Shown: positions 1 through 18,748 of the stretch, one piece after another
Numbering within the stretch: the first letter of the stretch is position 1
Layout: each line of letters opens with the position of its first letter
IMG/VR virus record: IMGVR_UViG_2565956607_000001
Location: 1-18,748 of that record
DNA: 18,748 bases
Strand: one strand, 5' to 3'
DNA from: a virus
Lineage: Duplodnaviria > Heunggongvirae > Uroviricota > Caudoviricetes
The notes under the pieces: generated by a model
Told to the model about the DNA's origin: nothing
Database searches by the model: none
What the model saw: only the letters and a program-made list of their open reading frames with translations
Position numbers and translations under genes: made by a program

Positions 1-83
1 TTATCACCACCGACTATTTGCAACAGTGCCTTATCGAGCAGCACAGCGGGAGACGTGCTCCCCAACTCCGGGTTAAAGGCCAT
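1..83 (-). CDS. Partial CDS, 5' end only (ATG at 81-83, open to the window edge; reads MAFNPELGSTSPAVLLDKALLQIVGGD...); unknown product downstream of the large tail protein gene
   Basis: Hand translation of the reverse complement of 1..83; open frame to position 1; not in the ORF track because it is truncated. No clear RBS seen. Confidence 0.3.
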   Translation of the reverse strand, partial: MAFNPELGSTSPAVLLDKALLQIVGGD

Positions 84-160
84 GTTTTTTGCTCCAAAAA
101 AGAGGCTTCGCCCAAACGAGGGTTTGAGCGAAAGAAAAGTTGAAAGGGATTTTTTTGGTA

Positions 161-3615: not shown

Positions 3616-3627
3616 ATTTGCCTCAGG

Positions 3628-4104
3628 TTAGTAACGTAAGCCCGGATGTTCGGCGAGGTTGTAACGTTTACGGGGCCAGGCTGTTTTGAGGACATTCATA
3701 TAGCCTGCCGTGACCTGAACTGCTGTCGGGGTCCAGGAGCCGGATTTGATATCGAGCGTATACGGTGATGATGCCGGAGCAGACAGATCGGATGAAATGT
3801 ACCGCCGGAATGTCAGCGTGGCTGATTTCATTTCATCCAGAATTTTATCGATCGCCTCTGAAACCCGTCCGTCAATATTGCTGATAGCAAACTTTAAATC
3901 CTGTGTCCCATCGGCGTTCCTGGCTGGTAAGGCGATATCTATCGCGCTGGCATCAAACGTCACCGGCTGACCATTTTCCAGCGTCACTGAAACGTCATCC
4001 CAGCCACTGGTTAGCCAGTAGTTATCATCGCCTGCTGATATCTGCAGCGTATCGTGAATAACCTCCGATCCGCTGCTGGCATATAGTCGCTCAAGAATTG
4101 TCAT
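3628..4104 (-). CDS. Minor/distal tail protein (158 aa)
   Basis: Overlaps the upstream gene by 14 bp (translational coupling); second gene after the tape measure protein. Confidence 0.5.
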   Translation of the reverse strand: MTILERLYASSGSEVIHDTLQISAGDDNYWLTSGWDDVSVTLENGQPVTFDASAIDIALPARNADGTQDLKFAISNIDGRVSEAIDKILDEMKSATLTFRRYISSDLSAPASSPYTLDIKSGSWTPTAVQVTAGYMNVLKTAWPRKRYNLAEHPGLRY

Positions 4105-4564
4105 GCTTCGGCCACTCTCTGTTTAGCGCAATATCCAGTAACGACTGGCCAGCCAGCCATTCCGGGTAATTCCCCCAGCCAGAAGGCGGTAAAGGGCGTT
4201 CCCATAATTCCAGCGTTGCGCTGTACTGCCAGTATTTTGGCGCGACCAGCGTCGGCCCTTCGTAAATATCCACGAACCTGGCTTTATAGGGCTTTACCCC
4301 GACTGGAGTCTGGAGTTTCAGATAGAACCAGGACTGGCCATCTTTAAGCGCATCCCTGAAAAACGCCTCAAACACCTGCGCCAGAGCATCAGTTTTAAAA
4401 ATCCATTTAACTGATGCCTGGGTGGGTGTTGAGGTATATCGCCTTCGTTGTTGAGCGCGACCGGACGTCATCTCCGTTCGCAGTAAAGGTGATATGGGCT
4501 TAAACCCGTACCCGTCCATAAGCGGCATGGGCAGGTATTCATCCGGGTAGAAAATATCTGCCAT
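4091..4564 (-). CDS. Minor/distal tail protein (157 aa), first gene after the tape measure protein
   Basis: ORF with start 21 bp downstream of the tape measure stop; product by position only. Confidence 0.5.
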   Translation of the reverse strand: MADIFYPDEYLPMPLMDGYGFKPISPLLRTEMTSGRAQQRRRYTSTPTQASVKWIFKTDALAQVFEAFFRDALKDGQSWFYLKLQTPVGVKPYKARFVDIYEGPTLVAPKYWQYSATLELWERPLPPSGWGNYPEWLAGQSLLDIALNREWPKHDNS

Positions 4565-4585
4565 GAATATTCCCTCCGGGCAGGT

Positions 4586-7500
4586 CTATCTTGGTTTTTT
4601 AGATTGGAGATTTGAATAAATAGCCCGACCGAATTTCTTCTGGGGGTTATTTACTTCGGCGGTTAAGGTGTTAACTATCCGCTGTTCCAGAGCGTCATTC
4701 CTTCGCTCAATTGCCTGCATCGTTATGTCATCCGGTTTACCGGTGAACGTACTTCTGGCATCTACGCTGACAGCAATTCGTGGCTGTGCCTGGATCTGGT
4801 TAGCAGCGTTCTGTACCGCCGGCGATTCCCGCCCAACAGCTTTGACCCCCAGCGAACCATCAGCGCCACGGGTAAGCGGCATGATGGCTTCCGGCCCGGC
4901 CTCGCCGAATACACCCGCCCCTTTCGCAAACGCAAAATATTGGGGAGTGCTGTAAACACCATTGCTGTAGGCAGAAAGTGACGGAGAATCGTAAACGCCT
5001 CCGAGAGCGTTGAATGAAAAATTAGCTCCCGCGCTTTGAATAGCGGTACCACTACTTACCGCACCGCTGGCACCGCCAAAAAGACTACCGAACAACCCAC
5101 CCGCTCCGCCGCCAAATGACGCCATAATCGCTTTGGTGATCAACGCCTGTGTTGCCATCTGGATCAGCGTCTTAATCACCGTTTCACCCAGAGAGCTGAA
5201 GATATTCGACATACCATCTTTAAACGAAGTGGCGCCCGTCAGGACGCTAGTCAGGTTGTTCGAGATCGAGTTAGTGGTGGCATCCAGAATTTCGCTGGTT
5301 GCAGTAGCAGCCATTGAACTCAGATCAGAAGCCTGATCGGCATAGTTCATCAGGGAATCGCTGATCCCTGCCCGCCAGTCTGACTGCTGTTCATCGGTTT
5401 TTTTGTAATACTCCTCCTGAATATCCAGGCGTTCGGCAAGCGCTGCTTTAAGCGCTTCCGTTTGCTTTTTATACAGGTCTTCGGAAATCTGCCCACGACT
5501 GAAATCACGTTGTAAATCCCGCTGCTGCCTGAGAAAATCAGCGCGAATATCCGCCATTTCCTTCATTCGGTCACGGGCTTTATCCCCCTGTCCCGCGCCG
5601 AGGAAATCGATATTCCCCCTTTCCCGGGCGGCAGTATTACTGTCGGCCAGACCTTCGCGGAATGTTTTTAACTGTTCAGCGATATTTTTCTGATCAATAA
5701 GCGCCGCATTGTGCAGCAACGTTTCCTTTTTGGATTTTTCAAGCGAAGATAATTCCCCCTGAGTAACCTGATATTTCATCTTTGCCAGCTCAGTGTTTTG
5801 GCTGGAAAGAGCAATTTGCTCCCGTTGCTGTTTAATCAGCCGGGTATAGGTATCTTCGGTTTTCTCCGCCTCGGTTTTCCCATGCCTTCCTTTTGGCTTG
5901 GGTTTATTTTCCTGGTTGTTTCTCCATTCATTCAGGCCGTTATTAATCAACTCCTGCCGTCCGGTCTGAAACTGTGGGTCGTTAGTTAACCCCAGGTCAT
6001 CCGCAGCATAACCCAGTCGTGCGCGCTCCTTGTCCTCACCTTTGAGTTTTGAAAGCGCCAGATCACGACGGCTTTTTTCAAGTGCAGCCGTTTGCTGGGT
6101 TGTCAGGTCTACCTGTGGTAAGCGTACTGGTGCGTTTACCAGCCCCTGTCGGGCCATGAGAAGATTATTTCCGAGACCCAGCAAACGGTTAAATTCAGTA
6201 TGCTCACCGTTCATCATTAATAACGATTGATATGCTGAATTCTGTTCTGCAGCCTGCTGCCGGATTAATGCTATTCGCCTGTTCTCTATCCCTTCCAGTA
6301 CCGACTGGATCGACTCAGACTTAGCCTGCATCTGAGCTAACCTCTCCTGTTCAACGGCCAGAGCGGAAGTCGCTTCTTCCAGACCACGGGTGACCGTTTC
6401 GACCGAAGTCAGGTGGTTTATCATGAAACCGCCACTGGTTGTTGGTCCGGGGTTAGACAGGACATACTGATAGCCAGCGATCTCTTCCTTCAGGCTTTTT
6501 ACTTTAGATGCCTGGGCATCAACAAGACGGTTTTGCTCCTCCAGCGCCTGACGGGTTTTGGTCTCATTATCAGAAACTTCGGGCAGGGACATTGATTTTG
6601 TCTTTTCACGGACAGCATCAATGGTGTTTGCATATTCCTGAGCGGATAATCTGGCCTGCTCCTGATTCTGGTACATCGTGTACCAGGCACCGGCACCAAG
6701 CAAAACCAGCCCAGGAATACCGCCAACGAGGCCTAATGCTCCCCCCATGAGCCGGGAACCTACAGCAGTAACCGAGTTCAGTGCAGTCTGAGCGGATACT
6801 CTGGCCTGAATATTACGGTTAAGTGACTCCTGCGCCAGTGAGAGCCGTTTTTCTGCGGCGGCCTGCGCGTCTGTACCCCGCGCCGCTGCCAGTGCCTGCT
6901 GGGCACGATAAACTGCAGCACGCGCACGAGCTGTCGAAACCTGCGTCCCTCTGACCTGGGCTTCAGCTAAAGCTACTTCGCTTTTTGCGGCGTTAATAAT
7001 CCCAGCCGTTGCAGAGCTGGCACCAAGAGCCATATTTCCCAAATATCGGGCAGCACCAACGGCAACAAGCGCTCCGGCAGCAGTGGCGACCTGATCAATA
7101 TTGTTGGCTACGCCATCAAGTAATCCGGTCAGGGTATTTGTCGCGCCACTCGCTTCATTAGCTCCACCGACCCATTGCATAAAAGCGTTTTCAACTTTTG
7201 TTGCCGACGATGAAACGGTCTGCGGCAACTCACCATATTCATTCCGGAGCTTACCAAGCTGGCTGATGAGGGCCGGAACTACTTTATCAATGGTTAACTG
7301 CCCCTGATCCGCCATAGATTTAAGGTCTTTACGCGCAACCCCCATCCCTGCCGCAAGCGCCCGTATAACCCTGTCGCCGCTCTCGTTGACGGCATTGAAT
7401 TCTTCGCCTCTCAGCACGCCCTGCGCCAGAGCCTGGCTAAACTGAGTGATGACCGAACTGGACTCCTGAGCATTCGCGCCAGAAAGTTTTAAACCAGTAG

Positions 7501-7972
7501 AAATAGCCTCAGTAATATCCAGCACCTGGCTGGAGCTGTAACCATATTCCCGCATTGAGGCTGCTGAACGGGAAAATAAATTAGCGTTGTCAGAAAAAGA
7601 TGTGCCCGTTTTCTGGCTGATATCCATCAGCTGTTTTTGAGAGCTGGTAAAATCATCAGTTGATTGAGATGCCTGTTTTAGCCGGGCGTTTACTGAATTC
7701 CATTCATCAGCCAGGGATATTAAATGTCCCGTAGCAAAAGCACCAGCAAATGCCCCGGTTAATCCCAGTGCGGTAGCCTTTGCTGACTCCATCTGGTCAG
7801 TAAGCTCAGCAACAGAACGGCGAGTTTCCCGAACTGAAGCCGCAGCCTGCCTGCCGCCATTCTGCATTGTTTTATAATAATCAGCCCCCATACGTGACGC
7901 GCGGGCTATCTCGGTCTGAAATGACTGAGAGTTAGCAGAAACTTTAATGATAAGTTCACGCAGGGTTGCCAT
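4586..7972 (-). CDS. Tail tape measure protein (1128 aa)
   Basis: Very long Ala/Gln/Leu-rich, coiled-coil-like sequence with a Gly-rich C-terminal segment (GGGAGGLFGSLFGGASG); lies between the chaperone pair and the distal tail genes; GAGGA Shine-Dalgarno about 6 nt upstream of the ATG. Confidence 0.85.
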   Translation of the reverse strand: MATLRELIIKVSANSQSFQTEIARASRMGADYYKTMQNGGRQAAASVRETRRSVAELTDQMESAKATALGLTGAFAGAFATGHLISLADEWNSVNARLKQASQSTDDFTSSQKQLMDISQKTGTSFSDNANLFSRSAASMREYGYSSSQVLDITEAISTGLKLSGANAQESSSVITQFSQALAQGVLRGEEFNAVNESGDRVIRALAAGMGVARKDLKSMADQGQLTIDKVVPALISQLGKLRNEYGELPQTVSSSATKVENAFMQWVGGANEASGATNTLTGLLDGVANNIDQVATAAGALVAVGAARYLGNMALGASSATAGIINAAKSEVALAEAQVRGTQVSTARARAAVYRAQQALAAARGTDAQAAAEKRLSLAQESLNRNIQARVSAQTALNSVTAVGSRLMGGALGLVGGIPGLVLLGAGAWYTMYQNQEQARLSAQEYANTIDAVREKTKSMSLPEVSDNETKTRQALEEQNRLVDAQASKVKSLKEEIAGYQYVLSNPGPTTSGGFMINHLTSVETVTRGLEEATSALAVEQERLAQMQAKSESIQSVLEGIENRRIALIRQQAAEQNSAYQSLLMMNGEHTEFNRLLGLGNNLLMARQGLVNAPVRLPQVDLTTQQTAALEKSRRDLALSKLKGEDKERARLGYAADDLGLTNDPQFQTGRQELINNGLNEWRNNQENKPKPKGRHGKTEAEKTEDTYTRLIKQQREQIALSSQNTELAKMKYQVTQGELSSLEKSKKETLLHNAALIDQKNIAEQLKTFREGLADSNTAARERGNIDFLGAGQGDKARDRMKEMADIRADFLRQQRDLQRDFSRGQISEDLYKKQTEALKAALAERLDIQEEYYKKTDEQQSDWRAGISDSLMNYADQASDLSSMAATATSEILDATTNSISNNLTSVLTGATSFKDGMSNIFSSLGETVIKTLIQMATQALITKAIMASFGGGAGGLFGSLFGGASGAVSSGTAIQSAGANFSFNALGGVYDSPSLSAYSNGVYSTPQYFAFAKGAGVFGEAGPEAIMPLTRGADGSLGVKAVGRESPAVQNAANQIQAQPRIAVSVDARSTFTGKPDDITMQAIERRNDALEQRIVNTLTAEVNNPQKKFGRAIYSNLQSKKPR

Positions 7973-7990
7973 TTCATTTCCTCAGAAACA

Positions 7991-8017
7991 AAAAACCCCA
8001 CATTGTGGGGCTTTTTT
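7991..8017. terminator. Bidirectional rho-independent terminator (stem CCCCAC/GTGGGG flanked by A5 and T6)
   Basis: Read directly: aaaaaCCCCACattGTGGGGcttttt; the hairpin is followed by a U-run on either strand. On the minus strand it closes the 8033..8266 gene just upstream of the tape measure RBS. Confidence 0.6.
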
Positions 8018-8032
8018 ATGATTTCAATATTA

Positions 8033-8266
8033 TTAAATTAAACCAGCTTTTTTCCTTGCTTCTTCCAGATAATCTTTTTCTGGTTCCTCTTTTTTATGAG
8101 CAAGTGCAATCAGAAGATCAATTTGAGCACTTTGCTTTTCAGAGATTTCTTTAAGCATAGCGATCTGATCATTAGCTCTTACGCTTCCTCTGTTCAGGAA
8201 ATACCAGATAACAAGATCAATAAGGCGAGCAAAAACAAATAATAATATCCAGCCAGTAGTAGTCAT
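8033..8266 (-). CDS. Moron-like small protein (77 aa) with an N-terminal hydrophobic helix and a charged, helical C-terminal half; function unknown
   Basis: ATG preceded by GGAGTG about 6 nt upstream; clearly AT-richer than its flanks; N-terminus GWILLFVFARLIDLVIWYFL looks transmembrane; followed by the terminator at 7991..8017; sits between tail chaperone and tape measure genes, which are normally adjacent. Confidence 0.6.
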   Translation of the reverse strand: MTTTGWILLFVFARLIDLVIWYFLNRGSVRANDQIAMLKEISEKQSAQIDLLIALAHKKEEPEKDYLEEARKKAGLI

Positions 8267-8296
8267 TTAAAGCACTCCGTGTGTCAAAAAAACAAC

Positions 8297-8312
8297 ATAA
8301 CACCTGTTATGA
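8297..8312. promoter_or_regulatory. Perfect 7-bp-arm palindrome CATAACA-cc-TGTTATG upstream of the moron; candidate operator
   Basis: Read directly in the 72-bp gap between the T-like ORF stop (8339) and the moron start (8266). A TTGACA hexamer lies just downstream on the minus strand but has no well-spaced -10, so promoter status is unproven. Confidence 0.3.
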
Positions 8313-8338
8313 GTGGCATCCACACGAATTATTACTGG

Positions 8339-8644
8339 CTATGCTGACGCAGCCAGCAGCGCCGCTTCCAGCCCTGCAAAGGGATCGCCACCGTCGTTTA
8401 CCTCAACCTCTTCTGCGCTCCACTGAAGCTGAGCATCTTCAATGGTGACTTTACCGCCCTGCGCTCCGTAAACCGCAGATACCAGCTGAGCATTGAGAAT
8501 ATCGCCGCGAATATCGCCGATTGGGCTGATACGGTCGTATTCAGCCCACATCCTGAATTCGCCGACCGTCAGGGTTTGTCGCAGTTCGCCCAGCGTGCGG
8601 CCCATCCGGAGCGCCAGCGCCATCAGGAACTGCATGCCAGGCAT
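8339..8644 (-). CDS. Tail assembly chaperone, T-like downstream part (101 aa as a free-standing ORF; possibly made as a G-T fusion)
   Basis: Starts 2 nt after the upstream gene's stop, in the -1 frame relative to it (TAAAAATG); no Shine-Dalgarno of its own; sits between major tail and tape measure genes like lambda G/GT. Confidence 0.55.
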   Translation of the reverse strand: MPGMQFLMALALRMGRTLGELRQTLTVGEFRMWAEYDRISPIGDIRGDILNAQLVSAVYGAQGGKVTIEDAQLQWSAEEVEVNDGGDPFAGLEAALLAASA

Positions 8645-8656
8645 TTTTACTTTGCT
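8645..8656 (-). other. Candidate programmed -1 frameshift window at the end of the G-like gene (minus strand AGC AAA GTA AAA then ATG)
   Basis: The -1 frame is open for only 3 codons before the G stop (in-frame TAA at 8657-8659), so any shift must occur on GCA-AAG at 8650-8655. That is not a canonical X_XXY_YYZ heptamer; independent initiation at ATG 8644 is the alternative. Confidence 0.3.
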
Positions 8657-9051
8657 TTAGCATCATCCGCGTCACGAATGAGATCAAGTGCCTGCTTCAA
8701 CAGCCGGGAATGCACTGGGCCATAGATCGCTTCAACCTGTTCGGTGTCATCGACAGTAAAGACGGGCTGCAGGTCGGTATCCAGCAAAATATCGATGAAA
8801 AGCGTGACGTCGGCCCGCATCGTGCGGAAGGCTCGTTCTGAAGGGGTCAGTTCTGGTGCCTCATGGGGCTCCTGCCCTTCCGGTAGTTTGGGTGGTTCCG
8901 GGCTGGCAATGCCCTGCCAGCGAATCCAGGCTTCTGCTGATGGCTCACGAATGATGACTTTGGCGTTATCCCACTCCGGAACGGAGACTTCTTTTTTACG
9001 AAAGCCCGCCATCGGTGCCAGTGCCAGTGCTTTAAGACTCGGTTTTGACAT
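8647..9051 (-). CDS. Tail assembly chaperone, G-like (134 aa)
   Basis: Small acidic protein directly after the major tail protein gene, followed by a -1-frame overlapping ORF; classic siphovirus arrangement. Confidence 0.6.
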   Translation of the reverse strand: MSKPSLKALALAPMAGFRKKEVSVPEWDNAKVIIREPSAEAWIRWQGIASPEPPKLPEGQEPHEAPELTPSERAFRTMRADVTLFIDILLDTDLQPVFTVDDTEQVEAIYGPVHSRLLKQALDLIRDADDAKAK

Positions 9052-9081
9052 TAATTTTATCGCCGGTCTCCCGGCGCTCCG

Positions 9082-9798
9082 TTAATTGATGGTGACGGTG
9101 CAATCAGAAGAAGTGATCACAGTGCCATCGGCATCAGTAACCACGCAGGAATAAACCCCGGCATCACCGGATACAGCGCTGGCTTTCGTAAACGTTGCGC
9201 TGGTCTGGCCGCTGACCGTCGAGGTGCCCTTTTTCCAGGCGTAGGTATAAGGTGCCGTACCGCCCTGGACGACCACGCCCATGGTCAGGGCGCTTCCTGC
9301 CGAGACCGTTTGGGACGCCGGAAGGTCAGTAGCAAACGACAGAACTCCTGGGGCGTTAATATTGGTGGGTTTACCTTTCAGACGCAGCGAGAACGTTGCA
9401 GCAACCACGCCATTGGTTTGAGAATCCCAGGTGTGCTGACGTACCTCAGCGCGCATCAGGAATCCATTACCAGACGGGAAAATAACCTTAAACCCATAAA
9501 CCCCGTCGTTATCATATGCTTCACGAAGTGCATCCTGCGCCGGGTTGCGGTAGAAGTTACCGGAAAGTGACATTTCAGACGGAGCAGGAAGGCCGTTGAT
9601 ATTTTCCGTTTCATCCGAACAGAGCGTTGTCACGTCAATATCGTTTTTCTGACCAGCGGTAAAGCTTGCCTGTTTGATAGTGCAACTCAGGTTTAACCAG
9701 GTTGCGGTATCCAGCTCTGCCGCGGTGACCGGCACAGAGGTAATCATTACTACCGTTTTTTGGGCACGTTCAAATAGTGCTGACATCGCAGCCTCCAT
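9082..9798 (-). CDS. Major tail protein with C-terminal Ig-like domain (238 aa from the first ATG; a start at the second ATG, 9786, is more likely)
   Basis: C-terminal roughly 90 aa (TDLPASQTVSAGSALTMG...YSCVVTDADGTVITSSDCTVTIN) has the look of a bacterial Ig-like domain, common on major tail proteins; the first ATG itself contains GGAGG placed 5 nt before the second ATG. Confidence 0.7.
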   Translation of the reverse strand: MEAAMSALFERAQKTVVMITSVPVTAAELDTATWLNLSCTIKQASFTAGQKNDIDVTTLCSDETENINGLPAPSEMSLSGNFYRNPAQDALREAYDNDGVYGFKVIFPSGNGFLMRAEVRQHTWDSQTNGVVAATFSLRLKGKPTNINAPGVLSFATDLPASQTVSAGSALTMGVVVQGGTAPYTYAWKKGTSTVSGQTSATFTKASAVSGDAGVYSCVVTDADGTVITSSDCTVTIN

Positions 9799-9803
9799 AA
9801 ATG

Positions 9804-9823
9804 AAAAAACCGCCAGCGGCGGT
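9804..9823 (-). terminator. Terminator-like hairpin (ACCGCC-gct-GGCGGT then U6) between the tail-completion and major tail genes
   Basis: Read directly on the minus strand: GC-rich 6-bp stem followed by TTTTTT that runs into the major tail start region; could be an attenuator or a transcript 3'-end stabiliser. Confidence 0.4.
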
Positions 9824-9842
9824 CGGATTGGATTGGTTTTTG

Positions 9843-10190
9843 TCAGGCAATGACCGTTATTTCGAGGGTTGCCCGATGAAGATGGGTTGTCGTGTCGTAG
9901 CCAGGAATTTTTGTCACCTCGACAGGTGAAAGAACCTGCAGGCGAGCCAGGGCGTCCAGGCGTAACGCTCTGGCTTCGTCATTCGTTTCAGCCCATACAT
10001 CAACCTGAATGCGCAGTGTCGACTCTGCCTGGCCGCAGAAAACATCCCCGGCAACATCAGTCGGTATCGAGAAAATGACATAGGGAGTGGAAACTGCAGG
10101 AAGTCCGTCGCTGCCTAGCGGCACTACATACGGATAAACCCGCCCGTCTGCCAGCGTCGACAGCAGGTCATAGAGATCATCCTCTGTCAT
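9843..10190 (-). CDS. Tail completion / head-tail joining protein (115 aa)
   Basis: Position immediately upstream of the major tail gene; 4-bp overlap with the preceding gene. Confidence 0.5.
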   Translation of the reverse strand: MTEDDLYDLLSTLADGRVYPYVVPLGSDGLPAVSTPYVIFSIPTDVAGDVFCGQAESTLRIQVDVWAETNDEARALRLDALARLQVLSPVEVTKIPGYDTTTHLHRATLEITVIA

Positions 10191-10636
10191 TTTGATAACA
10201 CCTCATCGATAGCCTGATTCATCCGCTGCATCGCCACCTGCGTAGCTTCTTCCATGCGGGTATCAAAAGCTGGGCGAACAAACGGATGTGCAGGCGCTGT
10301 AGATGTTCCCAACTCCACGAAGCGCCAGTAAAACGCATTCCGCTTGTTGCTGGCCTTCATTGTATTGTCGCTGTTCCCCGTTCGCGGGTTAACGCCACGA
10401 ATATGCACCCCAGATGAAATTTCACCGCGACGGCGACTTTTCTGGGTGACGACAACAACGTTTTTCTTCAGTTTTCCGGATTTCTCAGGAGCGCGATCAA
10501 TCACCTCCTCGCGGAGCAATTCGGCACCAGCACGGGTCGACTCCCGGAGAACTTTGTTATTTTCGGCCTTGCTGAGCGTTTGCAGATCGCGGGCAATATC
10601 CTGCAACCCGGAAAAATCCAGATTCACATCAATCAT
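10187..10636 (-). CDS. HK97 gp10-like tail component (149 aa)
   Basis: Position and size in the connector-to-tail block; 4-bp overlaps on both sides. Confidence 0.55.
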   Translation of the reverse strand: MIDVNLDFSGLQDIARDLQTLSKAENNKVLRESTRAGAELLREEVIDRAPEKSGKLKKNVVVVTQKSRRRGEISSGVHIRGVNPRTGNSDNTMKASNKRNAFYWRFVELGTSTAPAHPFVRPAFDTRMEEATQVAMQRMNQAIDEVLSK

Positions 10637-10971
10637 TTTTCGGTCCCCTGTTTGCAGAGAATTTCCAGCCGGGTGCCTTTGATATCCGGAACCGGAGGCC
10701 CGGTAACGTTAAGAACGGCACCTTTAAACGGGCCGGTGCGTACCTTCAGGCGGGAAGAAGCTGAGATATCTGTACGAAAACGCACCCAGACTCGAATGGT
10801 GGCATCGGCACGCTCAGCGTCAGCGGCTAAAAGTTCACGACCGCTTATACCCTTAACCTCGGCCCAGATGGTTTTCCCATCTTCCCATTTTTCAACCGGC
10901 TGACCTGAAGGCGTTCTGGAGGTGGTGAAGTTTTGGATGGTGACCCGGTGCCGTAATCGTCCTGCCTGCAT
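10633..10971 (-). CDS. Head closure / head-tail adaptor protein (112 aa)
   Basis: Second small gene after the capsid block, ahead of the gp10-like gene; typical order. Confidence 0.55.
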   Translation of the reverse strand: MQAGRLRHRVTIQNFTTSRTPSGQPVEKWEDGKTIWAEVKGISGRELLAADAERADATIRVWVRFRTDISASSRLKVRTGPFKGAVLNVTGPPVPDIKGTRLEILCKQGTEK

Positions 10972-10982
10972 AATTCCCCCGC

Positions 10983-11309
10983 TTAAATACCATAAATCTT
11001 GTAAGGCTGGAGAAGTGCCTCGACAGTAAACGGAATATCTGTAGCAGCCTGACCAACAGAGACCGTTTCACGGTTTTCGTACCAGTGACCGATAAGCAGA
11101 AGCATCGCTGCTTTCACATCATCGCCAGGGAGAATTGAATCAGGATCATCTGCATACCCCTCGCTGGTTTCGGACTCATACATTTTGCGACGAGTCCATG
11201 TTTCGACGTAACGAGAAGCAGCTCCGATGTAGAGGGACAATAGTGAGTCGTCATCGGTAAAGTCAGGCTCAATGCGACAGTGCTCTTTAACCACTTCAAG
11301 TTCTAACAT
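10983..11309 (-). CDS. Head-tail connector protein, gp6-like (108 aa)
   Basis: Acidic protein of typical size, first of the connector genes after the capsid block. Confidence 0.6.
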   Translation of the reverse strand: MLELEVVKEHCRIEPDFTDDDSLLSLYIGAASRYVETWTRRKMYESETSEGYADDPDSILPGDDVKAAMLLLIGHWYENRETVSVGQAATDIPFTVEALLQPYKIYGI

Positions 11310-11515
11310 TATTTTTTAGCCTTCTTCTCTGTCACAGTTTCCGGCTGTTCCGGCTGTTCCGGCTGTTCCGGCTGCGCAGAATTATCAACATCGACCAGCC
11401 GTGCATAGCCCTTTTTGACCAGTTCGCGGCCATGCTGTTCCAGGGTCTCCAGTGGCTCGCCTTCCGTTACCACTACCCCGCCATAGTAAATCGGTTTCAC
11501 CGCGATAAGTTTCAT
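11309..11515 (-). CDS. Small protein (68 aa) with a C-terminal (PEQ)n repeat and a Lys-rich tail; unknown function, possibly head-associated
   Basis: GAGG Shine-Dalgarno before the ATG; directly follows the capsid gene and its hairpin; carries the in-frame 9-bp tandem repeat. Confidence 0.55.
   Translation of the reverse strand: MKLIAVKPIYYGGVVVTEGEPLETLEQHGRELVKKGYARLVDVDNSAQPEQPEQPEQPETVTEKKAKK
11338..11375. repeat. Perfect tandem repeat, 9-bp unit GTTCCGGCT x4 (minus-strand CAG CCG GAA = Q-P-E), inside the 68-aa ORF
   Basis: Read directly; four exact copies plus a partial one. Confidence 0.9.
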
Positions 11516-11524
11516 GGTATTACC

Positions 11525-11549
11525 TCGAAAAGTGCGGCCCGTAGGCCGC
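11525..11549 (-). terminator. Hairpin GCGGCC-tacg-GGCCGC followed by a short U-tract, just after the major capsid gene; possible partial terminator or attenuator
   Basis: Perfect 6-bp GC stem read directly; the downstream U-run is weak (ACUUUUC). Confidence 0.35.
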
Positions 11550-11557
11550 CAGAGAAA

Positions 11558-12775
11558 TTACTGACCGCCAGCAACCGGTACAGTGAAGGAGCCGTAAATA
11601 AATGCCTCCGGCCGTTTTACTGCCAATGCCAATCGCTCTTCACAGCGGATCGAGATCATGTTCTTCTCGAAGTCGTCGGCGTTCTCAGTAGAAATAACAA
11701 CGTTGGCATCTTCACGGTCGAAGAGCTGCGCCGCTGCGTTGAATGCACCGGTCAGGAACTTACCCTGGAATGCCGGCGCTTCGGTCGCCACCACCGGCAG
11801 CCCCCACAGGGTGGGCCCGGTCAGCGCCGCCGGGTTTGCCAGGATATAGCGGCCCAGCGTGTCCTTTGTAAGCTCAATCTTCGCCCAGTCGATAAAGTGC
11901 AGAACGTGACCGGACGCCGGGAAGCGCGCCAGTTGCGCCTGAAGCATAGCGAGACGCAGATCATCAATGCCGTTCTGCTGCTCGACTTCAAAAGCAGCAG
12001 CAAAGGCAGTTGCCTGTGGAACAATGCCGTGAAGATGAACGCCGGTACCGTCTCCGAACAGAATTTCCTGTTCCTCCACATACTTCAGGCCGTAGCGCAT
12101 TTCCGCGTCGACCGTCGACTGCAACTGGGCAAAGTCATCCAGGATCTGTTTGGACGCCTTGAACATGTGTGCGATGGTGGTGACCGGGGTGATTTTGGTT
12201 GCAAACTCAATGTCGCTGTACGGCTTGGTGGTACCCTCTGCGACAACTTTTGCCGCATTAGTAAACCCAGTTTGCTGCACCCAGAAAATTGCAGGCGCGC
12301 CGGTACGACCTGGAGCAATCAGATCACGGATAAACAGTCGCTGTTTTGGCGTGGTATCGATGCCCGGCAAACGCTGGGGTTCAACAACCCCATCAGCAAC
12401 ACCTGTTGAAAGCAGGGCTGCATTAACCGGAATACTCAGGCGCTTGCCACCTTCTACGCTCGCCGCAAAGGTTTTCAATGCTTCGGAGTTAATCACCACC
12501 TGGCCCACGGTTTCGACCACTTTTGCAGCATTTGACAGCGGCATCTGGGCTACGTGCTGCTCCAGTTCGCCGAGCGCGGCTTTGAGGGCCTTTTCTGCCT
12601 CGCGCATGGCGTTAAGTTCAGTCGCCATCTTATCCACTGAAGCCTTTGTCTCTTCAGAAAGCCTGCCGGACTTCTGCGCCTCCTTAAGAGCATCCTCAGC
12701 CTTGGCGTTGAATTTGCTGGTCGCCTCTTCAATTGAGGCGGTTACTTTTTTCAGAATATCGTTTACGTCAGACAT
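11558..12775 (-). CDS. Major capsid protein, HK97-fold (405 aa)
   Basis: Roughly 400-aa protein directly after the prohead protease gene; Ala/Gly-rich, typical of HK97-family capsid proteins. Confidence 0.8.
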   Translation of the reverse strand: MSDVNDILKKVTASIEEATSKFNAKAEDALKEAQKSGRLSEETKASVDKMATELNAMREAEKALKAALGELEQHVAQMPLSNAAKVVETVGQVVINSEALKTFAASVEGGKRLSIPVNAALLSTGVADGVVEPQRLPGIDTTPKQRLFIRDLIAPGRTGAPAIFWVQQTGFTNAAKVVAEGTTKPYSDIEFATKITPVTTIAHMFKASKQILDDFAQLQSTVDAEMRYGLKYVEEQEILFGDGTGVHLHGIVPQATAFAAAFEVEQQNGIDDLRLAMLQAQLARFPASGHVLHFIDWAKIELTKDTLGRYILANPAALTGPTLWGLPVVATEAPAFQGKFLTGAFNAAAQLFDREDANVVISTENADDFEKNMISIRCEERLALAVKRPEAFIYGSFTVPVAGGQ

Positions 12776-12785
12776 ACGTTCTCCG

Positions 12786-13640
12786 TTACTGGCATGCGTT
12801 AGCCAGGCCGCTTAATGCGACATCCAGCTCAGCTAAAATTTCAGGGTTGGGTTGGGTAGCGCGCGGCATACCATCGGGATCGGTAACAGCGCCCGGCGTG
12901 TTACCAGTTAAAGCTTTGATTAATTTCCGGCGTTCAGACCGGGGGGTATTTGTTTTCGCCAGCAGAGCATCAAGTTTGCGAAGCGCAGCTGCAGGTGATT
13001 CGTCGCCGTCGCTGACCGCATCAGCAGAAAGCAGGCTGTCTGCCAGTCCCTTCGCCACAGCATCGCTGCCACCGATATAACTTTCGGCGTCCATCAGTTT
13101 CTGAACGGCGGCAATATCAAGGCCGGATCGCGCCGCGTAGATATCAGCCATTGCGGTATCGAATGGTTCCAGTGACTGTGCCAGTTCAGCAAAGTCAAGG
13201 CGGTTTCCCATCGCGTACACCCAGCAGTTGTGGATCATCAGGAATGCACCGCGGCCAATCTGAATATCATCCCCGGCCATCGCAATTATTGAAGCGGCAC
13301 TGGCGGCAATGCCCAGCACCTTCACCGTTACACGGCCTTCGTATTCACGGAGGAGGTTATAAATAGCCAGACCTTCGAACATGTCGCCGCCCGGCGAGTT
13401 GATATTCACCGTAACATCGGCGCCGTTCATCGCCCGAAGCGCACCGGCAATACGTTTAGCTGTTATCCCTTCCCCCCAGTAGTCCTGCCCTATAACATCA
13501 AAAACAGAAATACTGTTATCGTCGGTGGCCGCCGCCTTGATTCCACCGTCCCAGCGGTCCAGTGCGGACGGTAATGTTTCACAGGTAACGCGCGCGCAGG
13601 GGCGACCCGCCGGCGCCACCGGAAGTTGTTTTTTGCTCAT
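12786..13640 (-). CDS. Prohead maturation protease, ClpP/S14-like (284 aa)
   Basis: ClpP-type motifs (NSPGGDMFEGLAIYN; GIAASAASIIAMAGD) and position between portal and capsid genes. Confidence 0.8.
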   Translation of the reverse strand: MSKKQLPVAPAGRPCARVTCETLPSALDRWDGGIKAAATDDNSISVFDVIGQDYWGEGITAKRIAGALRAMNGADVTVNINSPGGDMFEGLAIYNLLREYEGRVTVKVLGIAASAASIIAMAGDDIQIGRGAFLMIHNCWVYAMGNRLDFAELAQSLEPFDTAMADIYAARSGLDIAAVQKLMDAESYIGGSDAVAKGLADSLLSADAVSDGDESPAAALRKLDALLAKTNTPRSERRKLIKALTGNTPGAVTDPDGMPRATQPNPEILAELDVALSGLANACQ

Positions 13641-13653
13641 CAGGAAAGTGCTC

Positions 13654-14961
13654 CTAAGCGGCCTGTTTCAGCGGAGATTGTTCAAAGGAAATGTCGGGGA
13701 ATACGTGGTTATGCAGCTCTCGCAAAGCCAGAGCCTGAACAGCAGGGTTGCTGCTTTCGAGATTTTTCAGTTGCGTCAGGTTGAGCTGAACGGTGTAAAT
13801 ATCGCCCCCTTCAATCGGCGGCATGTTTTCAAGACGGCGAACGTCATTGCGAGACATCCAGCCATTCTGCAGGGCGCTGGTATAGTAAGCAGCACGACCC
13901 GCACTATCGGCGCGCAGAAGCCCTTCAACGGAGAACTCAGCAAACAAGTCCTCATCACTGTTAAGAAGACAACGCGATATTTCCTGCTCAATATTGACCA
14001 GGAGAGGACGCAGGGTATGAGTCAGGAACAGCATGTTCATCCCTTCAAGACTCGAAGCCCAGCTGGATTGTTTTGTCGTATGGCCGACCATAAATGGCGG
14101 TACGCGAAACCAGCGACAAATTTCCTCAATACTGAATGAACGGCTTTCAAGGAGCTGAGCGGCCTCCGGGTTCATAGTGACATTCTGGTAAGTCAGTTCA
14201 TTTTCGAGAACCATCAGTTTCCCGGCGTTTTTAGAACCAATAAAAGACTGAAGGTTTTGACGCAATCTTTCTCGCTGTTCCTTATTAAGCGCCGTTTTTG
14301 AAGACAGGAAACCAGTACTTTGCAGGCCATTTTCGAAGATTTTTGCCGCGGCTTCATCAACCGACATAGCAGCGCCGAAAACGTCAACCCCGGCCATTGT
14401 CGGCATCATGCCGCACACGCCATCGAGACCAAACCCACGAATATGCATCATCCTGTCTACAGGAATGATCCGCGGAACGCCATTTTCCGTGTAGGTGTAC
14501 TGTAATTTTCCGCTATCGAGTCGCTTTACAACCATTTTCTGAGGAAGAAGCGGAACCATTGATACCAGCTTGTTACCAATGAAAAACTTTTCGACAAAAG
14601 CATTACCACGCAGACAAATGCTGGCCACAATCATCAGCATGAAACGGGAAGGTGTCATTTCCGGGTTAGGGCGCCTGCATAATATCTGGTATGCAAGATT
14701 ATTCTGGGCCAGTTTTCTAGATCCATCTGACTGTCTCTCGTAAATTTTTAGCGGAAGCGTGGATACCGACTCACTCAAGAGCCTCACGCACGCCCAGACG
14801 GTAGAAAGCCTGATAATTTTGTCAGCGGTGACAACTTTTCCGCTACTGCTGGTCCCGAACCACTCCTGCCAGAATTCACCGGTAGTCAGGCCTATGGGAA
14901 CACCAAGCCAGTTTAAAAGGGCGCTCTTAACGCGCCCTGGTTGCTGTTTATTCTTAGCCAT
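13654..14961 (-). CDS. Portal protein (435 aa)
   Basis: Size and position immediately after the large terminase gene; portal stop and TerL start abut at 14961. Confidence 0.8.
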   Translation of the reverse strand: MAKNKQQPGRVKSALLNWLGVPIGLTTGEFWQEWFGTSSSGKVVTADKIIRLSTVWACVRLLSESVSTLPLKIYERQSDGSRKLAQNNLAYQILCRRPNPEMTPSRFMLMIVASICLRGNAFVEKFFIGNKLVSMVPLLPQKMVVKRLDSGKLQYTYTENGVPRIIPVDRMMHIRGFGLDGVCGMMPTMAGVDVFGAAMSVDEAAAKIFENGLQSTGFLSSKTALNKEQRERLRQNLQSFIGSKNAGKLMVLENELTYQNVTMNPEAAQLLESRSFSIEEICRWFRVPPFMVGHTTKQSSWASSLEGMNMLFLTHTLRPLLVNIEQEISRCLLNSDEDLFAEFSVEGLLRADSAGRAAYYTSALQNGWMSRNDVRRLENMPPIEGGDIYTVQLNLTQLKNLESSNPAVQALALRELHNHVFPDISFEQSPLKQAA

Positions 14962-16703
14962 CAGATACCCACTATGATCGGATCGTCAAAAAAGCCCTCA
15001 ATATCACCATCATCAGGCTCGTAACCTTCCGCAGCACCAATTGCCATCGCTGACGCAACCACACCATCTATTCGACCAGTACTCTTTTTCTTGGCGAATA
15101 TGCGGTTTTCTTTTTGGTCGGCTTCGGTTACGGCGGAAGCAGCGTTCCATCGGAGGCAGGGGTTAGTTTTAATAATGATTACGCCATCATCCAGCATCTG
15201 TTCAAAGAGTTCGATGGAATGAGGCATCCACAGTCCTGAATCCTGCGCCTTGTAGTATCCCTGCCCGTGAGGAATAAGCGGTACTGATACAGAAGCGTTT
15301 TCCAGTTCTGGTTCAAGATATTTGATGCGGTACTGGTCGAAGGCGATCGCCTTGATATCGAACAACATGGAAAGATCAGCAATACGTTCAGCAACAAAAC
15401 CATATTTCACCGCCTTTCCTGGCGTAGTATGAATATGGCCTCCCCGTTCCCATGCGTCATAAGGTACGCGGTCTGTTTTCGCTCTATCCAGCAAAGTATC
15501 TTTTGGTGTCCAGAACTCCACCAGCAGCTTTCTTTTTTTAGGGAAAAAGAGCGCCAGAGACGTAAGGTCGCGAGTTCCTGAAAGGTCCAGGCCGCCATAA
15601 CATTCTTCTCCCTGCAGCTCCTGCAGGTCAAAGTCCTCTTCGCACCCCATCCACACATCGCTACTCATCCAGGGGTTATCGGCATCCACCCACTGACAGA
15701 AGTTTAACCGCCGAACAATGCTTTCCTTCGACGGCATCCCCCGAGCCTGAGTAACCTGCTCACGCAGGTAGCGATCGGTAAAAGTATGACCAAGAGAGGG
15801 GTTTGCTTTTTTCCAGCAGGACTCGTCCTTGAATGGGTCTTCTCCTTCGTCCAGGGAGCAAATGAAAGAAAAGAAACTGTCATCCTCAATCGAGCCTTCG
15901 GCAACTTTCCGCCCATACTCGTGATAGTCGTAGCAGACGCTGGTTTTGTCGTGGCCGCTGTTAGTGATCATAAAAATCAACGCCTGGCGACGACCTTTCG
16001 TCCCGGCGCGCATCATTTCCACAACCTGGTTGTTTTTGTGCTCGTGAATTTCGTCAATCAGAGCACAGTGTGGGCGTGGCCCTGACTGCCCATCATCCGA
16101 ACTGATAGGCCGGAAAAATGAGCCGGTCTGAAGAAACGCAAGGTTCCACTCTTTCCCGGCGCCGCCTGATTTATTTATTCGCTGTGCTAACGCAGGGGAC
16201 TGATCCACCATCGCGACAGCATCACGAAAAAGGATCATGGCCTGGTCTTTTTTCGTCGCCGCTGCGTAGACTTCTGCGCGAGGTTCTTTATCGGCAACCA
16301 AACAGTAAAGAGCAATGCCCGCTGCAAGTGGAGATTTGCCAGAACCTTTGCCTGACTCGACGTAAGCCATGCGGTACCGGCGATAGTCGTCTGAGTTTTT
16401 CCAGCCGAATATCGAACCTACAATAAAGCACTGCCACGGCAGCAGGTTAAAGGGTTTTCCCTCATGCTCACCGCCGTTGAGCTTCAGTATTTTTGCAAAA
16501 AAGTCGATGGCACGCTGCGCCGCTGCAACATCCCATACCAACCCGCGAGCATGGCAGGATTCCAAATCCCTGAGATGTCGTTTACAGGAGTTTCTAATAT
16601 CAGGACCGGCGATTTCTTTGCCGGAGTCTACATCCCGCGCATATTGCGTGGCGGGATCAACCGAAGAACTGGTTGAGCGGGTCTTCTTCTTTTTCTCCAC
16701 CAT
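14961..16703 (-). CDS. Terminase large subunit (580 aa)
   Basis: Walker A-like P-loop (VESGKGSGKSPLAAG) near the N-terminus; size; position between small terminase and portal; start overlaps the TerS end by 47 bp in another frame. Confidence 0.85.
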   Translation of the reverse strand: MVEKKKKTRSTSSSVDPATQYARDVDSGKEIAGPDIRNSCKRHLRDLESCHARGLVWDVAAAQRAIDFFAKILKLNGGEHEGKPFNLLPWQCFIVGSIFGWKNSDDYRRYRMAYVESGKGSGKSPLAAGIALYCLVADKEPRAEVYAAATKKDQAMILFRDAVAMVDQSPALAQRINKSGGAGKEWNLAFLQTGSFFRPISSDDGQSGPRPHCALIDEIHEHKNNQVVEMMRAGTKGRRQALIFMITNSGHDKTSVCYDYHEYGRKVAEGSIEDDSFFSFICSLDEGEDPFKDESCWKKANPSLGHTFTDRYLREQVTQARGMPSKESIVRRLNFCQWVDADNPWMSSDVWMGCEEDFDLQELQGEECYGGLDLSGTRDLTSLALFFPKKRKLLVEFWTPKDTLLDRAKTDRVPYDAWERGGHIHTTPGKAVKYGFVAERIADLSMLFDIKAIAFDQYRIKYLEPELENASVSVPLIPHGQGYYKAQDSGLWMPHSIELFEQMLDDGVIIIKTNPCLRWNAASAVTEADQKENRIFAKKKSTGRIDGVVASAMAIGAAEGYEPDDGDIEGFFDDPIIVGI

Positions 16704-17121
16704 CCACTTTCACCTTCGTTCTGGCGGCCGGAGTCAGACCGAATTCAACCAGGTAACTTTTGAAACGGCGATCAGCGTCGGCAAGCATGGCTACCGCCGG
16801 GTTAGCCTTAATCAAAAACCCGCCCTCTGTCTGCACGGTGTAAGTTCGCCCCTCGTCAGCAATAGTCAGGCGAAGCTGCAGAATGTCGGCGTAAATATCG
16901 CAGAGTCGTTCGAGCGCCAGCGTATCGGCAATGGTTAAAATGCCCATGCCATCCAGCAGCACGGTCAGCTTCCCCCACGCCACCTTTCCCCAGTCAGTGA
17001 GGTGCTCTGGAGGGCTTGGGATTTCTCGCGCTGGCGATGGTTCTTTGTCGTTAAGTTTGCGTTTGCCCGGGTTGCCGGTAACCACTTTGAGGTGGGTCGG
17101 TTTCGGGCGTCGTCCTGCCAT
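16657..17121 (-). CDS. Terminase small subunit, P27-type (154 aa)
   Basis: Basic N-terminus (MAGRRPKPTHLKVVTGNPGKRKL), typical size, directly upstream of the large terminase and downstream of the HNH gene. Confidence 0.75.
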   Translation of the reverse strand: MAGRRPKPTHLKVVTGNPGKRKLNDKEPSPAREIPSPPEHLTDWGKVAWGKLTVLLDGMGILTIADTLALERLCDIYADILQLRLTIADEGRTYTVQTEGGFLIKANPAVAMLADADRRFKSYLVEFGLTPAARTKVKVDGGEKEEDPLNQFFG

Positions 17122-17303
17122 CGGAACCTCCCGGAAAAAAACTTTTCATTTCGCGGTTGTGCACAAAAAGGACTGGCGGCGGTCATTTGGGTTCGAGGTT
17201 CTGAACTTTTGACCCGCCCCTCCCCCTCAGATGAGAATTGATATCATTTGATTCAAAATGATTTCATTTACAATCATTCCCCCGCAAAAAATGAGATTAA
17301 ATA
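17122..17303. promoter_or_regulatory. Candidate cos / terminase recognition region: GC-rich tract plus an array of ATCATTT-type repeats
   Basis: A 19-bp imperfect direct repeat (17231-17249 and 17291-17309, 16/19 identical); ATCATTT/AAATGAT in both orientations at about 17243, 17256, 17272 and 17303; GC-rich GACCCGCCCCTCCCCCTCAG at 17211-17230; location between the HNH and TerS genes, where HK97-like phages carry cos. Confidence 0.35.
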
Positions 17304-17645
17304 TCATTTAAACCAATGTGAGTTAGGATCCAGGGGCATTCCGCTCTCATCACAACCGATGACGGTGCCACGCTTCTCCATTCGCTGCTTCGTTGAGTCG
17401 TGGTGCTGCTTGCACAGCCCTTGCCAGTTCTTCCGGCTCCAGAAAAGCTTTTGCGCCTTCGCTATTTCCTGGCTGTCACCAGAGCGCAGAGCCTCTTTCA
17501 GTTTGTGCGGGATGATGTGGTCAACCACCGTTGCCGCTGTCACCCTGCCTTGCTCCTGGCACATGACGCACAAGGGGTGCGCACGTAGGAAGATAAGACG
17601 CTCTCGGTCCCACTTGCTGCCGTAGATACGGGGCTCTTTGTTCAC
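17304..17645 (-). CDS. HNH endonuclease, packaging-associated (113 aa)
   Basis: Two Cys pairs with conserved His (CVMCQ...VDHIIPH...CKQHH); position immediately upstream of TerS; start is GTG with AGGAG 7 nt upstream. Confidence 0.85.
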   Translation of the reverse strand: MNKEPRIYGSKWDRERLIFLRAHPLCVMCQEQGRVTAATVVDHIIPHKLKEALRSGDSQEIAKAQKLFWSRKNWQGLCKQHHDSTKQRMEKRGTVIGCDESGMPLDPNSHWFK

Positions 17646-17700
17646 GTAATCGCTCCTTGAGCATTATCACAGGCGCTCAGCGAGTGCCTGCTGTAATGCC

Positions 17701-17946
17701 TTAGCTCGCCTGTTCTGCGATGGTATCAAACAGCGCCAGCGCCTCGGTCGACTCCTGAACTGCTTTGATGGTCCGCGCCACCACTTCGGATTCAGTTGTC
17801 ACGCGACTGTACTGCTGGATGAACAGCTGATATTTGAGCTGGCTATCCTGGACGAACTCAATCGCCTTAGCAGCGGCCGCGGTGTCGTAGTTCAGGGTGG
17901 AAAGCAGATTCAGTCGAATCTGTTCTGCCGGTGTGATCTCTGCCAT
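17701..17946 (-). CDS. Hypothetical small acidic protein (81 aa)
   Basis: GAGGT Shine-Dalgarno about 6 nt before the ATG; GC and codon usage resemble the structural genes. No recognisable motif. Confidence 0.5.
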   Translation of the reverse strand: MAEITPAEQIRLNLLSTLNYDTAAAAKAIEFVQDSQLKYQLFIQQYSRVTTESEVVARTIKAVQESTEALALFDTIAEQAS

Positions 17947-18123
17947 GTTTTACCTCTGTGCGATGTGGGGAGCCACTCTTATGCTCTTGATTTGCTGTCA
18001 ACCGTCATTGCAGTGCTTATCACAGCAGCCTGAGCGGTCGGTAATTATGCTTGCACATCCGCGCTTACGACATGTGGGGGAATTAACGGTGGCATCGGTT
18101 ACTGCTTAGCATTCGAGGTGCAA

Positions 18124-18148
18124 TAAAAAGCCCCGCATAAACGGGGCT
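18124..18148 (-). terminator. Rho-independent terminator (stem AGCCCCG / CGGGGCT, 6-nt loop, then UUUUUAUUG on the minus strand)
   Basis: Read directly, 24 bp downstream of the stop of the 18172..18396 gene. Confidence 0.6.
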
Positions 18149-18171
18149 GTAGATTCAGATAAATGGTTTGG

Positions 18172-18396
18172 CTACTGATAGCTATCTGCAAAATGCCCTT
18201 CGATCTGAGATCTGACATCAACAGCTTCGTCTAACTTTAAGGAATCATAGCCCTTAATATGGAAATGAGGTTCATATGCATAAATAGTAATAAACGCATA
18301 TGACCCTTCATCTCCTGAGAAAATCTCATATTTGACGCGTGAAAGACCGGCACCAACTAACATGTATGCATCCAGAAGCTTATGGGTGTTCATCAT
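18172..18396 (-). CDS. Hypothetical protein (74 aa) in an AT-rich accessory cassette
   Basis: ATGATG start with an AAGGAAAAGGAA purine-rich RBS region; AT-rich compared with the structural module; followed by the terminator above. Confidence 0.5.
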   Translation of the reverse strand: MMNTHKLLDAYMLVGAGLSRVKYEIFSGDEGSYAFITIYAYEPHFHIKGYDSLKLDEAVDVRSQIEGHFADSYQ

Positions 18397-18501
18397 CCAT
18401 TCCTTTTCCTTTAAAAATCCTTACCAGCATACATGCATTCGATGGATAACGGCAGCAATACATCCTTGAAGACTTCGAAAAGAAACCTCAGCGTCAGTGA
18501 G

Positions 18502-18693
18502 TTAATACCCACACAGCCATCCAATAATTCCAAAAAATAAAGCGGCAAGTAGCCAGCCAAGTGCAGTTTTCTTCATTAACACTCCGTAAAATGCTATAGA
18601 CATCCCTAGACAGAGCGTTATAAAAACTGGCCACATAGTCAATAACAAAAACAAATAACTGACTAACCCACTATTAATAGTTACATTCACCAC
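18502..18693 (-). CDS. Possible small hydrophobic membrane protein (63 aa; start assigned to a GTG with poor RBS, true start uncertain)
   Basis: Two or three hydrophobic segments (LVSYLFLLLTMWPVFITLCLGMSIAFYGVL; LGWLLAALFFGIIGWL); AT-rich; within 55 bp of the window edge, so context is incomplete. Confidence 0.35.
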   Translation of the reverse strand: MVNVTINSGLVSYLFLLLTMWPVFITLCLGMSIAFYGVLMKKTALGWLLAALFFGIIGWLCGY

Positions 18694-18748
18694 TAACTTA
18701 ACCCTGACGTTCTAAATAGACTGGCCCCCTGAATCTCCAGACAACCAA

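Follow-up and report, generated by a model that had tools for sequence, protein, structure and literature searches.

What is encoded in the AT-rich block at the right edge of this viral DNA, and does it belong to the core of the phage or to its exchangeable cargo? The stretch under study, called the window throughout, comprises 18,748 nucleotides (nt) of a Caudoviricetes genome (IMG/VR virus record IMGVR_UViG_2565956607_000001, positions 1 to 18,748), and its backbone is that of a Klebsiella-type, HK97-like lambdoid prophage, in this case most likely resident in Escherichia coli. The block holds two small open reading frames (ORFs), one for a membrane protein of 62 or 63 amino acids (aa) and one for a soluble protein of 73 or 74 aa, followed by an intrinsic terminator, and is referred to below as the cassette. 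We consider it probable that the cassette is a moron, i.e., a self-contained accessory unit with a terminator of its own and two separable genes, which in this copy has been severed from its putative promoter by the insertion sequence (IS) IS2. The definition of a moron that a bioRxiv preprint quotes (10.1101/2024.10.15.618418) names autonomous transcription in the prophage and insulation by a terminator. A first-pass annotation, made from the sequence letters and a list of ORFs, had described an AT-rich block with two small ORFs and a terminator on the minus strand, lying upstream, in transcription order, of the HNH endonuclease and terminase genes in a variable prophage region; this layout was borne out at every coordinate. 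The features of the cassette and of the window edge are:

18717-18748, plus strand: left terminal inverted repeat of IS2, TAGACTGGCCCCCTGAATCTCCAGACAACCAA, a 100% match to IS2 ends
18691-18716, minus strand: what is left of the cassette's 5' leader, including a Shine-Dalgarno (SD)-like AGGG at 18702-18705
18502-18693, minus strand: ORF of the membrane protein, 63 aa from the first GTG (62 aa from the second)
18397-18501, minus strand: intergenic spacer of 105 nt
18172-18396, minus strand: ORF of the soluble protein, 74 aa (73 aa from the second ATG)
18121-18148, minus strand: intrinsic terminator, with its stem at 18129-18148 and a T-run reaching to about 18121

The cassette and its cargo slot

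The base composition of the cassette sets it apart from the neighbouring phage genes, as is expected of a moron: the G+C fraction is 0.40-0.43 over positions 18050-18649 and 0.52-0.57 over 16700-18049. The unit also ends, as a moron should, in an intrinsic terminator of its own, which had been called clean from the letters and deserves the adjective, as it consists of a G+C-rich 8-bp stem with six G-C pairs followed by the T-run TTTTTATT and folds at -15.7 kcal/mol (z-score -3.05). Past this terminator, conservation among the related loci falls from 0.96 to 0.65.

The scan of IMG/VR yielded 71 loci, to which other fetched loci were added, giving 76 in which both ORFs are intact, and homology was mapped across these 76 loci with the E. 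coli prophage p10A as the reference. In 50 of them the homology stops 51 nt past the stop codon of the 74-aa ORF, directly after the T-run. At the other end, the distance upstream of the membrane gene at which homology sets in is 374 nt for most loci and about 96 nt for the group of locus L054. Many of the phages that bear the cassette have no other similarity to p10A in their flanks, and the backbones that host it carry different families of holin, lysozyme and HNH endonuclease. In these alignments the cassette is shown to be a portable unit with sharp ends, extending from a conserved extended -10 motif, about 96 nt upstream, to the T-run of the terminator.

The position of the cassette among the late genes is equally informative. 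The late genes near the right edge of the window all lie on the minus strand, and the cassette precedes them in the direction of transcription:

17701-17946, minus strand: DUF2560 protein, late gene
17304-17645, minus strand: HNH endonuclease, late gene
16657-17121, minus strand: P27-family small terminase, late gene
14961-16703, minus strand: large terminase, late gene

The prophages p10A and SCU-308 share two collinear segments of about 90% identity, one reaching from the capsid gene to DUF2560 and the other from the spanin-like genes to the endolysin; the slot between these two segments holds 1.75 kb including the cassette in p10A and 378 bp encoding an Acb2/Tad1-domain protein in SCU-308. 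The packaging genes of ST13-OXA48phi12.2 are 99% identical, yet other cargo occupies its slot, and in ST147-VIM1phi7.2 the slot likewise holds other cargo. The cassette was found in 2 of 5426 complete E. coli genomes. Presence or absence at the same position among close phages is a further property of morons, and comparison of related prophages, which the first pass had proposed as a check, found slot contents that vary between collinear prophages. Because the contents differ in this way, the cassette is dispensable cargo and not a fixed part of the lysis module. Two genes encoding Acb2/Tad1-domain proteins are placed as follows:

L013 (E. coli SCU-308), 5902-6186: Acb2/Tad1-domain gene in the lysis-to-DUF2560 slot
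L055, 3228-3551: Acb2/Tad1-domain gene directly upstream of the cassette (Pfam PF24729, E 2e-17)

Since genes of this kind occupy it, the lysis-to-DUF2560 slot is a hotspot for counter-defence cargo. A different position was observed to carry HicA/HicB toxin-antitoxin pairs, which in several loci lie shortly upstream of the holin genes (L005-L008, 5279-5917; L009, 1472-2110; L091, 467-1098) and mark another cargo site flanking the lysis cassette.

The promoter-like motif and the IS2 end

Copies of the cassette that are free of the IS share a conserved motif, TTCACT-18-TGcTATAGT, about 70-100 nt upstream of the start of the membrane gene. The stretch GATAATGCTATAGTTC is the best-conserved non-coding sequence of the locus (0.97) and is kept even where homology upstream of it is lost. 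A single-gene version of the cassette in Klebsiella oxytoca is preceded by a near-identical motif, GATAATGCTAATAAT, and each independent version of the cassette closes with a terminator of its own. A promoter function of the motif is plausible from its match to the consensus, and we call it only plausible because the motif sits in a repeated hairpin element, of which it forms the 3' part. This element is intergenic, about 45 nt long, and composed of GGCATTACAG, a variable stem of 5-8 bp with a ..TGAG.. loop, and GATAATGCT. It occurs two to five times per phage within the lysis-to-terminase interval, always in the orientation of the late genes, and copies were found in Klebsiella-type and in Yokenella prophages. 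Compensatory double changes are present in 6 of its 14 pairs, no Rfam family corresponds to it, and the sites at which it occurs are also breakpoints of cargo exchange. The copy belonging to the cassette itself is degenerate (24 bits). The element may serve as a recombination linker or an RNA processing site, or may represent a family of promoters. Copies are located at:

Window, 17656-17700, minus strand: full copy, between the stop codon of DUF2560 and the ribosome-binding site of the HNH gene
L001 (p10A): 5707-5751, 7143-7188 and 6815-6854
L055: 3591-3635, 5142-5186 and 5496-5540
L094: 4327-4371

In most loci a conserved non-coding block of 374 nt lies upstream of the cassette (in p10A at L001 6772-7118). 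It contains promoter-like matches arranged face to face at about L001 6896-6951 and, on the opposite strand, a CCCCGT..ACGGGG hairpin with a T-run, and might give rise to an antisense or divergent small RNA (sRNA). A type I toxin with a divergent antisense sRNA was considered on this basis and dropped: the block is missing from the cassettes of the L054 group, the promoter-like matches are at chance level, and the membrane protein has two helices, not one. Searches of Rfam gave nothing at the gathering threshold in the window and only sub-threshold matches near the cassette of L085. Elsewhere in the p10A prophage, outside the window, an STnc100 sRNA match above the gathering score (76 bits; L001 9666-9858, minus strand) lies between divergent cargo genes and the holin gene.

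The first-pass annotation had also suggested that the cassette may run on past the window edge. This proved mistaken, as positions 18717-18748 are an IS2 end. The 32 nt at the edge have 100% matches at hundreds of IS copies in E. coli, and they match the feature annotated as "insertion sequence:IS2" in U82084, the record of Shigella phage SfX. In locus L090 the identical 32 nt precede, by about 60 nt, the gene of an IS3-family transposase, which has a programmed frameshift and reads away from the end. The 32 nt are identical to the terminal inverted repeat that IS2, a member of the IS3 family, has on the side of the transposase start, with the transposase context taken from L090; the present copy differs in that only the end of the element is visible, its body and the 5-bp target duplication lying outside the window. 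The transposase genes of this copy would run rightwards, out of the window.

The insertion site was placed by a three-way alignment with the IS-free cassettes of p10A and of Klebsiella phage Kp4865-4, which breaks exactly at 18717-18719; the junction is ambiguous by 2 nt, a shared TA. The E. coli prophages p10A and p10B carry the cassette without the IS; both are 100% identical to the window through the packaging genes and identical to it up to the junction except for a single-base gap. The cassette of Kp4865-4 is about 90% identical. IS2 lies about 27 nt upstream of the conserved start of the membrane gene, between the putative promoter and the ribosome-binding site, so that the SD-like AGGG and a short leader are what is left on the cassette side, the other part of the leader and the putative promoter lying past the IS2, and no promoter-like site was detected within window positions 17600-18748. 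Given this position of IS2, the present copy is probably silent in the lysogen or reliant on transcription through the IS.

Two small proteins and their separability

Both ORFs are maintained by selection. Among the 76 intact loci there are 28 and 33 distinct nucleotide versions of the two ORFs; the pooled ratio of nonsynonymous to synonymous polymorphism (pN/pS) is 0.26 for each of them, and the median pairwise ratio of nonsynonymous to synonymous substitution rates (dN/dS) is about 0.20, which indicates purifying selection on both. Conservation across loci extends to the start codons, the ribosome-binding sites and the terminator, and one relative, L083, carries frameshifts. The spacer is conserved as well, with column conservation of 0.95-0.98, and its 3' 60 nt surpass much of the coding sequence. 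By these measures of sequence conservation both ORFs are real genes, contrary to the possibility, entertained in the first pass, that they are unconserved artefacts.

In the comparison across loci, the first codon of the membrane gene is GCG or GTA in many copies, and because it varies, we place the start one codon in: the conserved start is most likely the second GTG, at 18690, which gives a protein of 62 aa, the length also given in RefSeq (WP_075211538.1). The 62-aa protein is extremely hydrophobic (grand average of hydropathy 1.48) and has no acidic residues, its sole charged residues being K40 and K41 in a turn. An AlphaFold2 (AF2) model predicts a helix-turn-helix hairpin (helices 2-38 and 41-62) with a predicted local distance difference test (pLDDT) score of 74. 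The C-terminus falls within the second helix, and since the chain ends there, the protein has no holin-like charged tail. It matches PHROG 36556, to which no function is assigned in that resource. A word-indexed search of 5.8 billion proteins retrieved 20 relatives of the 63-aa form, whose named sources are all Klebsiella species, and homologues are confined to Klebsiella-type prophages. No match to Pfam, NCBIfam or PADLOC was obtained at permissive E-values, the PDB likewise gave no family for it, and no holin family in Pfam corresponds to it.

The first codon of the soluble-protein ORF is ATA in some relatives, and translation may therefore start at the second ATG, at 18393, giving 73 aa; an AAGGAA ribosome-binding site precedes the start within the 105-nt spacer. 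The protein is acidic (pI 5.1) and is modelled by AF2 as four antiparallel strands followed by a C-terminal helix (pLDDT 81). It matches PHROG 38275, likewise without an assigned function there. The same word-indexed search found 30 relatives, the named sources again being Klebsiella species throughout, and an exhaustive hidden Markov model (HMM) search of 1.84 billion cluster representatives found 12 at E<=1e-3, all of them similar small proteins. Distant homologues with about 31-42% identity are kept in other genera. Searches of Pfam, NCBIfam and PADLOC gave no family, a profile search of the PDB gave no meaningful match, Foldseek gave nothing at E<=0.001 against BFVD, and no significant structural match was found in the PDB. 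Many NCBI and UniRef entries of this 73-79 aa family, from Klebsiella, Serratia and Yokenella, are labelled "DNA gyrase subunit B" (GyrB). This identity is backed by no sequence or structure comparison and was rejected; the label looks like a propagated misannotation. A literature search with the accessions, the PHROG identifiers, DUF2513 and DUF2560, and small membrane proteins of Klebsiella in exclusion returned nothing specific. The initial impression of two unrecognisable proteins, one of them embedded in the membrane, therefore stands, as the remote-homology and structure searches yielded no known family or fold for either.

The two genes do not always travel together. In prophages of K. 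oxytoca there are two 74-like genes, one located behind Q and the other behind the lysis genes, and no membrane gene lies beside either of them. Homologues of the 74-aa protein with 31-42% identity also stand alone, adjoining the lysis genes, in prophages of Serratia, Yokenella and others. Conversely, a paralogue of the membrane protein with 60% identity is followed by a DUF2513 gene in L055, and also in L075 and L076, forming a parallel small cargo unit. In L055 its parts are:

L055, 5264-5455: paralogue of the membrane protein, after DUF2560
L055, 5526-5972: DUF2513 protein of 148 aa, followed by a terminator

Moreover, the variants of the two genes are uncoupled: identities of the 74-aa and 63-aa proteins are 86% and 98% in L079, and 96% and 82.5% in L017. 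Because each gene occurs without the other and their variants are not linked, the distribution shows the two to be separable cargo within one transcription unit and not an obligate pair. The pairing offered in the first pass, as toxin and immunity protein or as a two-part exclusion system, is not upheld by these patterns, and at permissive E-values neither protein matched a family of toxins, antitoxins or defence proteins in Pfam, PADLOC or NCBIfam.

Alternative explanations and known systems

In the reading that we favour, the cassette occupies a cargo site flanked by the lysis genes on one side and the DUF2560-HNH-terminase packaging genes on the other. The intact unit, as seen in IS-free copies, measures about 670 bp; it begins with the promoter-like extended -10 motif TGcTATAGT, usually with TTCACT 18 nt upstream, and continues with a leader of about 65 nt, the gene of the 62-aa inner-membrane hairpin, the 105-nt spacer, the gene of the 73/74-aa acidic, cytoplasmic beta-sheet protein, and the strong terminator. 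In the lysogen, its own putative promoter would drive both genes and the terminator would block read-through into the head genes, and in the lytic cycle the cassette terminator would be passed by Q-modified RNA polymerase. The 74-aa family represents a rare small protein located by lambdoid lysis cassettes across Enterobacterales, usually alone, to which the membrane gene is a Klebsiella-specific addition.

Several observations weigh against this reading. The hairpin element that contains the promoter-like motif also occurs where no promoter is expected, e.g., before the HNH gene, and the conservation of the motif could reflect this element and not a promoter function. Both genes are found together, at a constant spacing of 105-110 nt, in 70 of the 71 IMG/VR loci, and such fixed co-occurrence could mean that they cooperate. 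The constant position of the 74-aa family on the side of the lysis genes is equally compatible with a lysis-related role. Finally, the roles proposed for the two proteins rest on position, size and physical properties, with no homology or fold match.

The co-occurrence just mentioned, together with one promoter-like motif and one terminator for both genes, is what an obligate two-component system would produce, in which the membrane hairpin acts as a toxin, effector or exclusion factor and the 74-aa protein as its neutraliser, sensor or regulator. A small, extremely hydrophobic protein resembles many membrane-depolarising toxins, and the paralogue with its small cytoplasmic DUF2513 partner can be read as one effector with interchangeable partners. 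We nevertheless judge such a system improbable, given that K. oxytoca, with two copies per prophage, as well as Serratia, Yokenella and others have 74-like genes that no membrane gene accompanies, that variants of the two genes recombine freely, and that the searches of PADLOC, Pfam and NCBIfam described above gave no toxin, antitoxin or defence match.

A slightly poorer case can be made for accessory lysis genes expressed with the late operon, the membrane hairpin being a holin, antiholin or timing factor and the 74-aa protein a regulator of lysis. Every member of the 74-aa family that was examined directly adjoins the lysis cassette: in Klebsiella, Serratia and Yokenella the gene comes after those of the spanins, whilst it precedes the holin gene in L095 and lies between Q and the holin gene in K. 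oxytoca. In Serratia it even overlaps the last of the lysis genes and lacks a clear terminator, and the membrane protein has the size and the two transmembrane helices of a holin. It does not, however, match a holin or spanin family, nor does it possess a charged cytoplasmic C-terminal tail. Furthermore, the cassette is not kept wherever the same lysis genes are kept, since SCU-308, with endolysin-side and packaging genes about 90% identical to those of p10A, lacks it entirely and carries Acb2/Tad1 instead; this also speaks against the cassette being the conserved tail end of the lysis cassette, an option named in the first pass. The Klebsiella unit lies 0.4-1.3 kb away from the lysis genes, with other cargo and terminators in between, and the 74-aa family, with its 12 representatives among 1.84 billion proteins, is very rare and hence not needed for lysis.

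That the ORFs are chance frames or decaying, functionless remnants, as their shortness, their lack of a family, the frameshifts in L083 and the separation of this copy from its putative promoter by IS2 might suggest, is effectively refuted for the family, and hardly credible, in view of the 76 loci with both ORFs intact at a pN/pS of 0.26, the conserved start codons, ribosome-binding sites and terminator, the AF2 models, which are confident for such small proteins, and the distant homologues retained in other genera down to about 31% identity.

To return to the cassette as a moron, both genes may have conflict-type accessory functions. For the membrane hairpin, this may be an activity at the inner membrane, perhaps in superinfection exclusion or in the modulation of the envelope or of lysis, and the 74-aa protein may, by analogy with its slot-mate Acb2/Tad1, be a small binder or inhibitor. 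A bolder possibility, to which we assign a low probability, is that one or both proteins found a new family of phage-conflict proteins, either the 74-aa protein as an anti-defence inhibitor or sponge, or the 62-aa hairpin, with the 74-aa protein or DUF2513 as interchangeable partners, as a minimal module of exclusion or abortive infection. Because the slot also carries the anti-CBASS/Thoeris sponge Acb2/Tad1, the 74-aa protein is a reasonable candidate for anti-defence and defence screens in Klebsiella pneumoniae, a species in which phage therapy is being pursued. The unit is compact (about 670 bp), widespread in Klebsiella prophages, and can be cloned and tested directly, and the copy with IS2, a naturally occurring promoter-disconnection allele, can be compared with the intact E. 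coli copy in p10A. Annotations can be corrected in three respects: the 74-aa family is not GyrB, the second GTG is the most likely start of the membrane gene, and the window edge is IS2. The general value of the locus is modest, as it represents a typical moron with two uncharacterised small proteins.

Lambda bor and HK97 gp15 are examples of phage morons, a class reportedly treated by Juhala et al. in 2000 and by Cumby et al. in 2012. The cassette resembles morons in its location between core genes of the late operon, its distinct composition, its promoter-like motif, its terminator and its patchy presence. It differs from them in that its proteins belong to no characterised moron family, its autonomous expression is putative, and the present copy is separated from the motif by IS2. 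T4 Imm, HK97 gp15 and P22 SieA are small inner-membrane proteins of superinfection exclusion; the membrane protein has no sequence similarity to them, and the likeness is one of size, topology and location only, i.e., a small protein, strongly hydrophobic and with one or two transmembrane helices, that is encoded in an accessory slot of a prophage. For the 74-aa protein, the nearest comparison is with the Acb2/Tad1 sponges: although it matches neither their Pfam family nor, significantly, any structure in BFVD or the PDB, it is, like them, a small soluble protein, and an Acb2/Tad1 gene occupies exactly the same slot in the collinear prophage SCU-308 and stands directly upstream of the cassette in the L055 group.

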